Shown here piece after piece: positions 5,394 through 62,389 of a DNA stretch of 64,000 nt. The position numbers and the translations under genes were made by a program. Position 1 is the stretch's first letter, and every line of letters starts with the position of its first letter. Under the pieces are notes generated by a model, which saw only the letters and a list, made by a program, of their open reading frames with translations, made no database searches and was not told the origin of the DNA. This DNA is from an uncultured Clostridia bacterium (GTDB taxonomy: Bacteria > Bacillota > Clostridia > TANB77 > CAG-508), in the NCBI GenBank assembly GCA_947623725.1, contig CANQHI010000001.1, forward strand, positions 37,442 to 101,441, read 5' to 3'.

Positions 5394-5495
5394 AAAAATA
5401 AAATATAATGAATTGGAAGCATCCACTGCCGCTAACAGGCGAAACACGAATGGAATGAAAAACAAGGATGCGAAAATTCATTATATTTTATTTTT
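5394..5495. repeat. intergenic nested-hairpin element, copy A (short core)
   Basis: Perfect 21-nt AT-only inverted arms at 5394-5414 and 5475-5495, plus an inner stem gcatcc/ggatgc. The GC-rich core contains GGCGAAAC..CGAATGGA, related to copies B and C. The right arm abuts the stop of the 5494..7455 gene. On the minus strand the hairpin is followed by a long T run. Confidence 0.7.
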
Positions 5496-7455
5496 ATATA
5501 TCAATAAATAGTCTATATTGCATTTTCTCTTTATGCTCATAAACCATTTTCATTTGTTCATTCATATCAGTTAAATTATACTTATTTCCATTACTATCCA
5601 TAACGATAAACTTATTCACAGCTGGTAATAAGTTAATTGTCGAATATAGATATTTATAATATTTATCAACATCTATATCCATTTGATTTATGATGTAAGT
5701 TAGTAACATATCATCACTAAAGTATTTTGGAACATTACTATAATCAATGTCATAATTTGCAACAATAAAGGCTTCAGTATTATATTTTCTAAAAATATTT
5801 TCTGTATCATCATCTGTATTAAAATAGCTTAAATGATCAATTACATTTTGTCCTTCTTCTGTATATAAATAAGGTAGATGGTCACCTAAAAAAATTATCA
5901 TAGTTGGTTCATCATAATTCTTTATATATTGATATAATCTATTTACTTGTTTGCTCGCATCGTATATTCCTTGAGCATAAGACAAAATTGTTTTATTAAA
6001 ATCTTCACTCAAAGTACTTTTTTCTATTTCTATATCATATTTTTCATATCTATCTTTCATATAAGGCATATGACTTTGAATAGTTTCCGCCATAAAGAAT
6101 AATTTCTTATCTTTTCCCTTTGATTTAAGTTCCTCTATTATTTTGTCTGTAATGAATTCATCAGAAATATATTCTCCTTTTTTATTCTCATCTGTTTCTT
6201 CATATTCTACATATTCATCAAATCCCATTTTCTTAAATTGCAAATTAGATTGATAATAGTCCTTACCAAATACAATTTTAGAATAATAACCATTTTGATT
6301 AAGATTCTTTACTATTGATGGAGCATTTGCTATATTTTTTCTTCTATACAATGAAACTATAGGTATGTATGAATTTGAGAAATAATTCATACTTCCTCCT
6401 GTTAATAATTCAAATGCTACATTCTCAGAAAGACCTCCATATGTGCATGTTAGTAAATTTACATTAGTTCCATTCTTTCTTATTTCATCTAAATCAGCTG
6501 TTACTTTTTGGCTAAACTCTACTTCACTAATTTTATCCACATCCCAAAAAGATTCCGAGAATACTAGTATAATATTTGGTTTACCCCAATCTTTATTACT
6601 TTCTACACTTTTACTAATATTTTCCAATTGTTCATTTAATTCTTTTTTGTTATAATCATGTGGTTCAGAAAAAATATTATTTAGTGATACTTCCCATAAT
6701 CCTGATAAAAAAGTATATTTATTATAAAATGATAGATTTGTTGTTTGTGTATCATAATCATCTCTTGTATCTATATTAAATACTGTTTTTAAATAAAATT
6801 CTTTCATACTTTTATTAGGAAAAAATAATAATCCTATCATTATAATTCCTATAATAGCACAAGATAGTCTTTTTCCTAATCCATTTATTTCTTTATTATA
6901 TTTTTTAGCTAATATCATAATCAAAAAGAAACAAATGCCTAATTCAATAAATACTAATATATACTCCCAACTTTTTGCAATTAATGTTGTTGATGTGAGT
7001 TCTGCAATCTCTCCTAATCTAAATAAAAAGTTAATGTCTGATATTGCCACTGGTTCTCCAGTATATATAATTTTTATTTGATTAATTATTAATATTATAT
7101 AAGTAAAAAATAAAAGGACATTCACCGTAGTAGATGTCTTTTTAGTTATTCCAAGCAACATTATATAAACAACATAAATTAATAAAACAGAAAAAGCAAA
7201 AGCTTTACGATTTATTATATCTATCCCAAAAGTACCCGTGTTTACTGCAAAATAAAATCCTTCAATAAATAATGCAATTATTAATGGTATAATTGCATTT
7301 ACTACTTTTTCTATTATTGGATTTACTTTATTCCAAATCTTTTTTATTTTATCAAACTTTTCACTATTTTGAGTTTTTGATTTTTCTGCAATTTCTATAT
7401 TTTCATTTTTATTTGATTCTTCTGTAATATTATCTTGTTTCAATTTTTGCTTCAT
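5494..7455 (-). CDS. LTA synthase family protein (polytopic membrane N-domain plus sulfatase-like domain)
   Basis: 653 aa. Multi-TM N-terminal half followed by an extracytoplasmic alkaline-phosphatase/sulfatase-like domain, the LtaS-type architecture. Confidence 0.7.
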   Translation of the reverse strand: MKQKLKQDNITEESNKNENIEIAEKSKTQNSEKFDKIKKIWNKVNPIIEKVVNAIIPLIIALFIEGFYFAVNTGTFGIDIINRKAFAFSVLLIYVVYIMLLGITKKTSTTVNVLLFFTYIILIINQIKIIYTGEPVAISDINFLFRLGEIAELTSTTLIAKSWEYILVFIELGICFFLIMILAKKYNKEINGLGKRLSCAIIGIIMIGLLFFPNKSMKEFYLKTVFNIDTRDDYDTQTTNLSFYNKYTFLSGLWEVSLNNIFSEPHDYNKKELNEQLENISKSVESNKDWGKPNIILVFSESFWDVDKISEVEFSQKVTADLDEIRKNGTNVNLLTCTYGGLSENVAFELLTGGSMNYFSNSYIPIVSLYRRKNIANAPSIVKNLNQNGYYSKIVFGKDYYQSNLQFKKMGFDEYVEYEETDENKKGEYISDEFITDKIIEELKSKGKDKKLFFMAETIQSHMPYMKDRYEKYDIEIEKSTLSEDFNKTILSYAQGIYDASKQVNRLYQYIKNYDEPTMIIFLGDHLPYLYTEEGQNVIDHLSYFNTDDDTENIFRKYNTEAFIVANYDIDYSNVPKYFSDDMLLTYIINQMDIDVDKYYKYLYSTINLLPAVNKFIVMDSNGNKYNLTDMNEQMKMVYEHKEKMQYRLFIDI

Positions 7456-8329
7456 TTAATTTCTCCTGACTTTCTGTAAATCCTGCTATATCTTCATCTG
7501 AGAATTCATAAGTCATTTTTTTATTATATGCTTTTTCATATTCTTGTTTTTTTAATTCAAAATCTTTTAATCTCATTTCTTCTTTATTTTCTTTAAGGCT
7601 TTTACTTTTATCCGGATAAATTGGTGGCATTATATGTAATATATATTTTAATTTATTAAAGCCATTTTCGCCATATTCTCCAATTTTTTCCCTAATTTCA
7701 ATAAAGCATGGAATTATAGGCACATTATTTTTAGCTGCAATATGATATGCTCCAACTTTAAAAGGTCTAACTTTACGATAATTAAACCACATTTGCTCTT
7801 CTGGATATATTAAAATAAATTCTTTTTTTTCTAATAATTTTTTTATTGATGGATAAAAATTTCTTTCTGTATATCCCTTGCTTTTACTTACTGGTATTGT
7901 ACTACAATTATTCATTAAAAATCCGAAAATACCATCTTTTAAAAGATTTTCTTCTTCTACTATAATATTTAACTTTTTCTTTTTTCCTATTTTATTTGTA
8001 AAAAATCTTATTACTGTACTATCTTCAGGGCTAAAATGATTAGATGTTATTATAGCTCCTGTTTCTATATTTTGTACATTTTCTAAACCAATTATTTCTG
8101 TATCTTGATTAATATTATCTGTAAATTTATTTGCAATATTCCTTGCAATTGCTTTTTTTACTTTATTTATTGGATTTTTTCTTAAAATATCAAATTTATA
8201 TACTACTTTTTCTCTATCTTCCTCAGTAATAGTTTCATCATTAATTTCTACTTTGCTGTTTAATTTATTTTCATTTATATTAGATTTTATGTTATCTATT
8301 ACTTTTAATCTTTCAATGTCTTTTTCCAT
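7430..8329 (-). CDS. lysophospholipid (PlsC-like) acyltransferase
   Basis: 299 aa with an NHxxxxD motif (SNHFSPEDS) and a downstream IYPEE block typical of the LPLAT family. Overlaps the next gene, suggesting translational coupling. Confidence 0.7.
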   Translation of the reverse strand: MEKDIERLKVIDNIKSNINENKLNSKVEINDETITEEDREKVVYKFDILRKNPINKVKKAIARNIANKFTDNINQDTEIIGLENVQNIETGAIITSNHFSPEDSTVIRFFTNKIGKKKKLNIIVEEENLLKDGIFGFLMNNCSTIPVSKSKGYTERNFYPSIKKLLEKKEFILIYPEEQMWFNYRKVRPFKVGAYHIAAKNNVPIIPCFIEIREKIGEYGENGFNKLKYILHIMPPIYPDKSKSLKENKEEMRLKDFELKKQEYEKAYNKKMTYEFSDEDIAGFTESQEKLNEAKIETR

Positions 8330-8365
8330 TATTTCTTCTTTTCCTTAAATATTTTTAGAAAATTC

Positions 8366-60700: not shown

Positions 60701-60840
60701 TATAAAACATATTCTATTTTTCATTAAAAACTTGATTAATTATTGTTTATTTAAACAATTTGTTATATAATTGGTAATAATTTATATAGGTTTATAGATT
60801 TCCTCTTAAAATCTAAATATAATTACAAGGAATAAAAATT

Positions 60841-62232
60841 ATGAATTATACTTTAGTAAAAGATTTATTTAGAAATACCGAAAAATTTTTAGGACAAGAT
60901 ATAAAAGTTGCTGGTTGGGTTAAAACCATGCGTAATTCTAAGAATTTTGGTTTTATAGAATTAAATGATGGTACTTTTTTTAATAATGTTCAAATAGTTT
61001 TTGATAATAATTTAAGTAATTTTGAAGAAGTATGCAAATTAACTATTAGTTCATCAATTATTGTAGATGGTAAATTAGTAAAAACTGAAAATGCTAAACA
61101 ACCATTTGAAATTCACTCTACAAATATCGAAATATACAATTTATCAGAAAATGATTACCCAATTCAAAAAAAGAATACAAGTTTCGAATTTTTAAGAACT
61201 ATTGCACACCTTCGTCCTAGAACTAATACATTTAGTGCTGTTTTTAGAGTTCGTAGTATGCTTTCTTATGCTATTCATAAATTCTTTCAAGAAAAAGGTT
61301 TCGTATATGTAAATACACCACTTATTACTGGAAGTGACTGTGAAGGTGCTGGTGAAATGTTTAGTGTTTCATCTTTTGATTTTAATGATATACCAACTGA
61401 TGACAAAAACAATGTCGACTTTTCCAAAGACTTCTTTGGAAAAAATGCTCATCTTACAGTTAGTGGACAACTTGAGGCAGAAACTTATGCAGAAGCCTTT
61501 AGAAATGTTTATACATTTGGTCCAACATTTAGAGCTGAAAACTCTAATACTGTAAAACATGCTGCTGAATTTTGGATGGTAGAACCTGAAATTTGTTTTG
61601 CTGATTTAAGTGATTGTTTAGATTTAGAAGAAGCAATGGTAAAATATATTATTTCTTATGTTCTAGAAAATGCTCCAGAAGAAATGCAATTCTTCGAAAA
61701 ATTTATTGCACCTGGATTACTTGAAAAACTTAATACTACAATAAATGAACCTTTTGGTAGAATTACTTATACAGATGCAATTAAAGAATTAGAAAAACAC
61801 AATGATGAATTTGAATTTAAAGTTTCTTGGGGTGCTGATATTCAAACTGAACATGAAAGATACTTAAGTGAAAAAGTATTTAAAAGACCTGTTTTTGTTA
61901 CTGATTATCCAAAAGAAATTAAAGCATTTTATATGAAACAAAATCCAGATGGAAAAACAGTTGCAGCTGCTGACCTTCTAGTTCCTGGAATTGGAGAACT
62001 TATCGGAGGAAGTCAAAGAGAAGAAGATATATCTAAACTTACAAATAGAATGAAAGAACTAAACTTAAATGAACAAGATTATTGGTGGTATCTAGACCTT
62101 CGTAAATATGGTAGTGTTCCTCATGCAGGTTTTGGTTTAGGTTTTGAAAGATTAATGATGTATACAACAGGAATGCAAAATATTCGTGATGTAATTCCTT
62201 ATCCACGTACACCAAAAAATTGTGAGTTCTAG
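60841..62232 (+). CDS. asnS: asparagine--tRNA ligase
   Basis: 463 aa: OB-fold N-domain plus class IIb core ([15 protein letters not shown]). Confidence 0.95.
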
Positions 62233-62268
62233 AGGTATGAAAATTTATTATTTTCTTATTTTATAAAT

Positions 62269-62389
62269 AAAAAATAAAAATAATAAATTTGAAGTATCGC
62301 GCAGCGACCAAGCGAAGCGCGAATGGAGCGATAAAACGAAAGTTTTATCTGCGACAGCAAGATACGGAAATTTATTATTTTTATTTTTT
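62269..62389. repeat. intergenic nested-hairpin element, copy C (full core)
   Basis: Perfect 22-nt AT-only arms at 62269-62290 and 62368-62389, extendable with one 2-nt mismatch. Inner stem gtatc/gatac. The core reads GCGCAGCGACCAAGCGAAGCGCGAATGGAGC, then an 8-bp GAAA-loop hairpin (62330-62349), then TGCGACAGCAA. Lies between the convergent asnS and adh genes. Confidence 0.75.

Follow-up and report, generated by a model that had tools for sequence, protein, structure and literature searches.

The stretch of DNA examined here (the window, 64,000 nucleotides from an uncultured Clostridia bacterium; GCA_947623725.1, contig CANQHI010000001.1) has a GC content of about 25% and carries nearly all of its genes on the minus strand. 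At three gene ends it contains a copy of a structured stem-loop repeat, and the family to which these copies (A, B and C; Table 1) belong is the subject of this text. Copy A abuts the stop codon of a sulfatase/LtaS-like gene (5494..7455, minus strand), copy B lies 13 nt downstream of obg (11314..12594, minus strand), and copy C is situated between the convergent genes asnS (60841..62232, plus strand) and adh, which encodes an Fe-ADH/lactaldehyde reductase (62401..63588, minus strand). An earlier note, made from the letters of the window alone, had already placed the three copies at these coordinates and had described a common GC-rich core, of which copy A is a shorter relative, as well as a short inner stem between arms and core. 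Re-reading of the sequence confirmed the positions and the inner stem in all three copies, and folding scores and covariance-model matches (see below) confirmed the common core. Two details had to be amended. The arms, given as perfect AT-only inverted repeats of 21-22 nt, are indeed perfect throughout and consist of A and T only in copies A and C, but those of copy B are 23 nt long and include one C-G pair among the A/T pairs. Likewise, the same plus-strand orientation had been assigned to all copies; A and B, however, follow minus-strand genes, and their cores as drawn on the plus strand are therefore antisense to the adjacent transcript.

Copies B and C have in common the strand AGCGACCAA, a mini-hairpin of the GCGAAGC type, the stretch GCGAATGGAGCGAT (an exact 14-mer with two occurrences, in B and C), a covarying hairpin and the strand TCTGCGACA. 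In the covarying hairpin, a compensatory change distinguishes the two copies (GATGAAAC/GTTTCATC vs GATAAAAC/GTTTTATC). Copy A is devoid of this second hairpin (P4) and of the 3' junction strand. The arms of copy C measure 22 nt, with an imperfect inverted repeat reaching out to 62260-62398. Compared with shuffled sequence, the three copies fold with z-scores of -7.7 to -9.3 (copy A, -7.9). Covariance models built from copies of other genomes match only A, B and C in the entire window, with E-values in two runs of 9e-23 and 1e-22 for C, 1e-19 and 3e-18 for B, and 9e-8 and 1e-8 for A. Directly past the asnS stop codon, the 3' end of a second, tandem copy is left next to copy C; this remnant is present in both genomes compared at this locus, and its orthologue (locus L018) is longer and still contains ttttctgcgacagcaagatacgg.

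Table 1 Positions in the window of the three copies, their parts and two associated remnants
Feature	Position	Strand	Description
Copy A	5394..5495	+	Degraded family member
Copy A arms	5394-5414 / 5475-5495		21 nt, perfect inverted repeat, A/T only
Copy A inner stem	5419-5424 / 5466-5471		gcatcc/ggatgc
Copy A core	5425-5465		CTGCCGCTAACA variant
Possible decayed conventional obg terminator (tcgacaaaaaatgatttttt)	11144..11163	-	Downstream of B; partial similarity to species 3
Copy B	11173..11301	+	Full element
Copy B left arm	11173..11195	.	Perfect complement of right arm 11279-11301
Copy B right arm	11279..11301	.	Perfect complement of left arm
Copy B core, invertible segment	11196..11278	+	83 nt between arms
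Copy B P2	11199-11203 / 11272-11276		Inner stem atagt/actat; plus GT/AC at 11206-7 / 11268-9
Copy B P3	11217-11227		AGGC-GAA-GCCT
Copy B conserved strand GCGAATGGAGC	11228-11238
Copy B P4 hairpin	11239-11260
Copy B 3' junction strand	11261-11271
Remnant, 3' end of second tandem copy (gaggtatgaaaatttattattttcttatttt)	62233..62263	+	Directly past asnS stop; inverted-repeat pair
Copy C	62269..62389	+	Full element
Copy C left arm	62269..62290	.	Perfect complement of 62368-62389
Copy C right arm	62368..62389	.	Perfect complement of 62269-62290
Copy C core	62291..62367	+
Copy C P2	62294-62298 / 62361-62365		Inner stem gtatc/gatac; plus GC/GC at 62301-2 / 62357-8
Copy C P3	62312-62318		GCGAAGC
Copy C conserved strand GCGAATGGAGC	62319-62329
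Copy C P4	62330-62349		GAAA loop

The family extends well beyond the window. A pattern scan of genomes, using one genome per species, returned 20 loci, and 17 exact matches stem from a single rabbit-gut metagenome-assembled genome (MAG), 'uncultured Clostridia bacterium Lapin-005__bin108' (GCA_947588945.1). In the loci of this MAG, a covariance model built from its own copies (R1) adds six further copies or remnants, resulting in a total of about 23; these include full, P4-less and cut-off copies, and tandem arrays occur there as well. As its flanking DNA is about 96-99% identical to the window, this MAG represents the same species. Copies are also present in three sister species, which were reached through Obg and Fe-ADH homologues: species 2 (GCA_947624715.1) carries one copy after obg and one after adh, and in the copies of species 3 (GCA_947624735.1) P4 is replaced by a long insertion. 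A metagenome scan yielded nine true copies among 50 loci. All nine, of which three come from human gut, constitute a second subfamily with arms TTTGATAATATATTGTTTT, inner stem ATACC/GGTAT, tandem G.A pairs in the P3 hairpin and 2-80 nt in the P4 loop. The genome-wide search for the core that the earlier note had proposed thus found further copies both in the same species and in its relatives, and the hosts of the family are gut Clostridia that are uncultured, form spores and have a GC content of about 25%. Of the 20 loci from the genome scan, four (Bacteroidales, Aeromicrobium) were discarded as GC-rich chance or coding matches, as were 41 of the 50 from the metagenome scan. In three Bacteroidales MAGs (L002, L014, L020) the pattern matched a conserved coding stretch (…AGCGAATGGAGCGA…TCTGCGACAC…) unrelated to the element; hence, the 22-base pattern on its own is not specific. 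The sole pattern match in IMG/VR (L030) was rejected by the covariance model.

The consensus structure of the repeat unit, which comprises about 110-130 nt overall, is a branched hairpin. Its outer stem (P1) has 16-24 bp and is almost purely A/T, with A- and T-tracts at the outer ends and an ATATAAT-like motif inside. The inner stem (P2) of 5 bp is followed by a 2x2 mismatch, a G-C pair and a Y-R pair, leading into a three-way junction in the order AGCGAYCAA, P3, GCGAATGGAGC, P4 and (TCT)GCGACARCAA; GCGA is present in each of the three conserved junction strands. P3 is a mini-hairpin of 2-4 bp closed by a GNA triloop or GNRA tetraloop, and P4 is an A/T-rich hairpin of 8-9 bp. This structure was tested on two alignments, one of them built by hand, and the main figures given here refer to 35 copies. 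Standard pairs occupy 97.1% of 1132 pair cells, and double-sided changes are found in 30 of the 34 pairs (292 cells), to which no shuffled or slid control comes close. G-U pairs account for about six of the 1132 cells, or about 0.5%.

Such covariation also bears on whether the family could be an assembly artefact or ordinary conserved intergenic DNA. Most copies were obtained from metagenome assemblies, and inverted repeats can confuse de Bruijn graph assemblers when k is smaller than the repeat. However, at up to 24 nt the arms do not reach the final k values of the assemblers used, the family turns up in data of independent projects and assemblers (NCBI MAGs, ENA SPAdes contigs, Logan k=31 contigs, JGI), and covariation in all helices cannot come from an artefact, so that this explanation is extremely improbable.

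P4 is expanded to 56-80 nt in copies at L025 15696-15856, L081 3803-3960 (minus strand) and L074 1489-1664, from which it follows that P4 tolerates large insertions; the expansion in species 3 includes an additional long hairpin, GCTGTTGTCGAAAAC...GTTTTCGCAACAACAGC. Two independent cut-off copies (L012 835-890 and L006 921-975) both end at GCGAATGGAGC, against the stop codon of a minus-strand gene, and the remnants adjoining copy C begin at the boundary between P4 and the 3' junction strand. Judging from these cut-off copies and remnants, breakage may occur preferentially at P4.

The arms are part of the element. Those of about 35 copies share the consensus AAAATATAATAATTT..., and subfamilies group arms, inner stem and core together: six loci carry the combination ...TAATTAATTT-GAA-GTATC, and four carry ...ATAATAGTTT-GCA-GTTGT. 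In species 2, identity between the copy behind obg and that behind adh is 80% with the arms counted in; the two copies of species 3 are 84% identical, and window copies B and C 74%. Overall, different loci within one species are 74-84% identical, compared with only 57-62% for same-locus copies in different species. As likeness within a species, arms included, exceeds likeness at the same locus, the whole hairpin must multiply or be homogenised within the genome. The arm sequences had been considered unrelated between copies in the earlier note, a view refuted by the shared consensus and the recurring combinations.

With the locus specificity of the arms, the explanation built upon it loses most of its ground. 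According to this model, a GC-rich core enters the loops of existing terminators, or duplicates its target inversely on insertion, so that the arms would be derived from the locus. It can draw on the outer arm halves (8-10 nt), which are low-complexity A/T tracts for which homology between copies is not provable. At locus A, moreover, the same-species MAG GCA_947588945.1 carries no element and retains 16 nt identical to one arm. Yet this copy-less genome also lacks 31 nt beyond the other arm, outside the element; the sequence difference resembles a deletion more closely than it does a clean empty site, but is ambiguous. A third point in favour of the model is a core-less hairpin with family-like arms in the adh/asnS slot of species 3. 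Since this hairpin keeps both the arms and the P2 of the species-3 subfamily, it appears to be a deletion derivative. Comparison with empty sites, as the earlier note had suggested, was possible in sister species. The element-free obg slot of species 3 (L025/L026) contains an ordinary terminator, GCGACAAAATT...AATTTTGTCG, followed by a T-run (intact form, gcgacaaaatttttatgaattttgtcgtttttt), and the adh/asnS slot of species 4 contains another one, AAAACAAAGATGT...ACATCTTTGTTTT. Terminators without a core thus exist, but their G/C-containing stems are unrelated to the element arms. Considering in addition that the same combinations of arm, inner stem and core recur at unrelated loci and that species-specific subfamilies share their arms, the core was not dropped into pre-existing terminators. 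An inverse duplication of the target is likewise unsupported by the recurring arms, though less firmly so in view of locus A; as a whole, the model is very unlikely. Direct target-site duplications were not found either: among 19 copies examined, a flanking direct repeat of at least 3 nt occurs in two, no better than at random positions. An origin as MITE (a non-autonomous derivative of a DDE transposon) with direct target duplication was rejected on this count; as to terminal repeats, the arms share a loose consensus only and differ by compensated changes.

Close relatives of the window differ in their copies in several ways. At locus B, the segment of 83 nt enclosed by the arms is exactly reverse-complemented relative to its orthologues in three assemblies (L021, L022, L023), namely MAG GCA_947588945.1, ERZ27060145 as second assembly, and a Logan contig with an Obg that shares 99% identity with that of the window. 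The flanks are collinear and about 98-99% identical, and the inversion is regarded as real because the assemblers' final k-mer sizes exceed the length of the arms. It was seen only between strains. At locus C, the orthologue L018 has the same orientation and a different P4, this hairpin having been swapped wholesale for a variant found in other copies. Orthologous arms differ by compensated changes, C/G to T/A in B and T/A to G/C in C, each on both arms, and compensated arm changes also separate the two copies of species 3. As the inversion at B, the P4 swap at C and the absence at A show, copies are gained, lost and rearranged between close relatives, and to this extent the earlier suggestion of a mobile element is supported.

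An asymmetric segment of 77-83 nt that is enclosed by perfect inverted repeats and found in both orientations at the same locus of near-identical strains invites comparison with programmed inverton systems. In this scenario, a dedicated invertase would recombine the arms, and core orientation would decide between termination and read-through, or turn an internal promoter on and off, at many loci simultaneously. Clostridioides difficile is known to possess small invertible switches with flanking inverted repeats of about 20 bp, and the ATATAAT-like motif conserved in the arms would fit as well. In general, known invertons of Clostridioides difficile and Bacteroides occur in small numbers per genome upstream of the genes under their control, include promoters or terminators and need a recombinase. 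The present family resembles them in its inverted repeats of about 20 bp around a short segment found in both orientations, but differs in having about 20 or more homologous copies downstream of housekeeping genes. No invertase or recombinase gene is present in the 64 kb window or in annotated neighbouring loci, the arms vary substantially between copies, which is ill-suited to a single site-specific enzyme, and only one flip was seen, with locus C unflipped. Besides, all helices pair equally well in both orientations, so a switch at the RNA level is not obvious. Finally, inversion of hairpin loops also arises spontaneously in other AT-rich genomes: in chloroplasts, such inversions at gene 3' ends are well documented and have been explained by recombination between the stem arms with no dedicated enzyme (Kelchner and Wendel 1996, reviewed in PMC12371153). 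The likeness to these cases extends to the AT-rich genome, the stem-loop downstream of genes and the occurrence of both loop orientations between close relatives. The chloroplast loops, however, are single-copy, 4-50 bp long and without conserved content, in contrast to the conserved, structured module of a repeat family described here. A programmed inverton system is hence considered unlikely.

Throughout the family, most copies are located 0-55 nt past a stop codon, with a few between divergent genes. This, together with the ordinary terminators in the same slots of sister species, agrees with the earlier view that the copies sit where a terminator is expected. Relative to the gene whose 3' end precedes the copy, about 13 scorable copies are antisense and nine sense, copy B being found in both states. 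As the copies occur at gene ends in both orientations, any role there cannot depend on the orientation of the core.

These data are also relevant for the most serious competing explanation, a structured non-coding RNA family acting either in cis as modules of 3' untranslated regions or as small RNAs freed from the duplex, e.g. by RNase III. Its junction would bind a protein or ligand or be catalytic, and the multi-copy state would be secondary. The special loops (GNA/GNRA) and the tandem G.A pairs exist only on the G-rich strand, and in 32-33 of 35 copies this strand folds more stably than the complementary one, with RNA and DNA parameters alike (32 of 35 with RNA parameters). Furthermore, the junction strands between the covarying helices are kept across distant lineages, the elements are located in probably transcribed regions at the 3' ends of genes, and a perfect duplex of about 22 bp has the right size for RNase III. 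Nevertheless, the favoured strand runs antisense to the neighbouring gene in about 13 of the 22 copies that could be scored, and its orientation at locus B differs between near-identical strains. A G-U content of 0.5% is unusual in selected RNA, no conserved promoter is detectable, and selfish repeats typically show the kind of cut-off copies, tandem arrays and presence/absence differences seen here. Rfam gave no support: the whole window returned no match to Rfam 15 at gathering thresholds, and in E-value mode copies B and C and one copy of the second subfamily scored at best 7-18 bits, compared with gathering scores of 45-249, in line with the earlier statement that the core matches no known RNA family. 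An RNA family is therefore possible but rather doubtful. ARAGORN found no tRNA or tmRNA genes in the window. Comparison by eye on both strands gave no fit to the hammerhead core (CUGAUGA/GAAA), twister, pistol or hatchet, and none to group II intron domain V and the 5' GUGYG motif either, a GUGCG-like start not being conserved (GCGCG in many copies).

The best reading, with about an even chance of being correct, is a mobile or self-homogenising, structured palindromic stem-loop repeat which would serve as bidirectional terminator. Copies spread or homogenise within the genome, as is evident from species-specific subfamilies, tandem arrays, cut-off copies and presence/absence differences, and they settle, in one orientation or the other, shortly after stop codons. 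At such sites, the long hairpin and its A/T tracts would act as bidirectional terminator or 3'-end hairpin in place of a conventional terminator. Judged from sequence, a non-canonical bidirectional terminator is plausible, as A- and T-tracts make up the outer portions of the arms. Downstream of copy B, positions 11144..11163 are possibly the left half and T-run of the ancestral obg terminator, now decayed. The flip of the asymmetric core, directly visible at B, could result from recombination or from template switching during replication between the arms, as in the chloroplast inversions mentioned above. Repeatedly, the same arm-to-arm exchange might copy one arm onto the other; alternatively, mismatch correction could take place inside the hairpin. 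Either process would explain why the arms differ between copies and yet are perfectly Watson-Crick paired within each, with no G-U intermediates. More speculatively, the conserved junction may be needed for propagation and is then probably recognised as folded single strand by a putative protein. The occurrence of both orientations, the scarcity of G-U pairs (about six in 1132 cells) and the missing target-site duplications speak for behaviour at the DNA level or independent of orientation.

Several observations weigh against this mobile terminator repeat. The loop motifs confined to one strand and the better folding of the G-rich strand would also fit an RNA, and a purely DNA-level selfish repeat has no obvious need of a three-way junction conserved across distant lineages. 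All evidence for inversion comes from one event in total (window vs three assemblies), and the indel at locus A is neither a clean excision nor a clean insertion. No transposase or recombinase is encoded in the window (Pfam annotation) or in annotated neighbouring loci, the regions covered by the scan. Moreover, a consensus scan for intrinsic terminators (short GC-rich stem, loop of 3-8 nt, T-run) did not call A and B; such a scan misses these sites since their stems are AT-only and the 'loop' measures 60-83 nt. In the second subfamily, the T-run past the stem has only 3-5 nt, and the terminator role may accordingly not be general.

A different long-hairpin repeat was observed after obg in two more distant relatives (L027 11275-11420 and L028 11275-11390; Obg 79% identical, GC 29%). 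It has 32-nt arms (TTTTCAGTTGGGGACGGTCCTAAATCGAAAAA) around an AT-rich centre of about 45 nt, with an extra half-copy in L027. Replacement of terminators by long structured hairpins may thus be common in the clade.

The family is previously undescribed; it is kin to bacterial stem-loop repeats in the broad sense (REP/Correia/'SLS') and matches no tested family. Searches of the literature by core sequence and keywords found no description of the element, and it was not found in the first 200 of the 408 supplementary files of a structured-RNA catalogue of the human microbiome (PMC8040213). A blastn search of the core against PLSDB plasmids and INPHARED phages gave no match. In the wide sense of stem-loop repeat families, of which 92 'SLS' families have been defined (Cozzuto et al. 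2008, PMC2267715), the element has its place, being repeated, intergenic and endowed with a shared stable structure. REP/BIME/REPIN, ERIC, Rickettsia palindromic elements, B. cereus bcr1 and SLS repeats are likewise short, non-coding, multi-copy and intergenic, often just after genes; they also form stable hairpins, tandem clusters and decayed copies and are thought to be terminators or mRNA stabilisers. In REP-type repeats, however, the palindrome itself is conserved and GC-rich, in contrast to the AT-only, variable stem and the conserved asymmetric junction in the loop found here, and the hosts here are uncultured Clostridia. Membership in REP/BIME/REPIN was rejected on account of the variable stem sequence, the conserved asymmetric junction and a GYAG that is inside the core and not 5' of the palindrome. 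Pfam annotation of genes in the window and in the sampled loci revealed no RAYT or Y1 transposase, with which REP-type repeats are associated. These loci also contained neither an insertion sequence with matching ends nor a 'master' element whose 5' and 3' halves enclose a gene; cut-off 5' halves ending at GCGAATGGAGC simply adjoin the ends of neighbouring genes.

Closer in architecture are the Correia elements or NEMIS of Neisseria and similar MITEs, which have 100-160 bp, terminal inverted repeats and long RNA hairpins and can act as terminators, as RNase III substrates and, by -10 boxes in their repeats, as promoter-like sequences. Size, terminal inverted repeats, long hairpin and the -10-like motif in the arms are shared with them. 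Correia elements, however, possess conserved 26-bp terminal repeats and a TA target duplication, unlike the present family with its variable arms, conserved structured junction, flipping core and lack of target duplication. Mobile GC clusters of yeast mitochondria and palindromic repeats of Volvox and Dunaliella organelles are also GC-rich hairpins in AT-rich spacers and presumed selfish. Yet these are organellar, much shorter and themselves palindromic, without a long AT-only stem and conserved three-way junction. Integron attC sites, IS200/IS605 ends and the T-shaped terminal repeats of parvoviruses such as adeno-associated virus (AAV; flip/flop) represent recombination sites made of folded single-stranded DNA. 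They offer analogies only: conservation of structure over stem sequence, Watson-Crick-only pairing and a branched hairpin, as well as an asymmetric centre in two orientations (AAV flip/flop) and the lack of target duplication (IS200/IS605). In contrast to these, the present family is internal to the bacterial chromosome, and its vicinity yielded neither an integrase nor a Y1 transposase or Rep gene. An attC site in particular was rejected, as the arms contain no R''/L''...L'/R' boxes (RYYYAAC...GTTRRRY) and the neighbours are housekeeping genes (obg, asnS).

The combination of features is unusual, comprising an asymmetric three-way junction that is conserved across lineages within a long stem, a stem that drifts and yet remains perfectly Watson-Crick paired, and a junction that flips between strains. 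A bolder interpretation, for which there is a small chance, regards the GCGA junction as the recognition structure (folded single-stranded DNA) of a new mobilisation or recombination system without target duplication, or as a new RNA class, with frequent flipping between the arms making some 20 or more gene-end terminators per genome orientation-variable. If true, this would amount to genome-wide phase variation acting at 3' ends. The family is a natural system for asking how palindromes stay perfect, i.e. for concerted evolution via intra-element recombination or template switching. It also raises the questions of how selfish hairpins take over the role of terminators and whether a hidden partner, such as an HUH-type enzyme or an RNA-binding protein, recognises the junction. 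In practical terms, the elements can mislead strain comparison and inverton callers in metagenomes.

Elsewhere in the window, a minus-strand cluster for cell-wall polysaccharide or teichoic-acid-type biosynthesis (22242-47082), with no element copy inside, includes genes for UDP-galactopyranose mutase, CDP-glycerol glycerophosphotransferase, an IspD-like protein, glycosyltransferases, a flippase and LytR-CpsA-Psr. Between recG and hrcA lies a gene for a toxin of the ParE family (type II toxin-antitoxin; 55551-55865, minus strand). A second, unrelated inverted-repeat family is represented at 5163-5189 / 5330-5356 and at 49603-49628 / 49767-49792. Its unit is a 26-27-nt hairpin (TTTTTATTAAGT-N5-ACTTAATAAAAA), of which two inverted copies surround about 140 bp just upstream of two pilin-like paralogues (4115..5119 and 48242..49279; 51% identical). 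The arrangement is found in the same orientation in the same-species MAG (L021) and could represent an invertible promoter or operator pair. The pilin-like paralogue upstream of dnaJ (49483-48242, minus strand) has an in-frame TAA after 54 codons (MKKINYKEKGITLVALVITIIILLILAGV...KEA*), at 49319-49321, past which the open reading frame 48242..49279 goes on in the same frame; it is either a pseudogene or a strain-specific nonsense allele.

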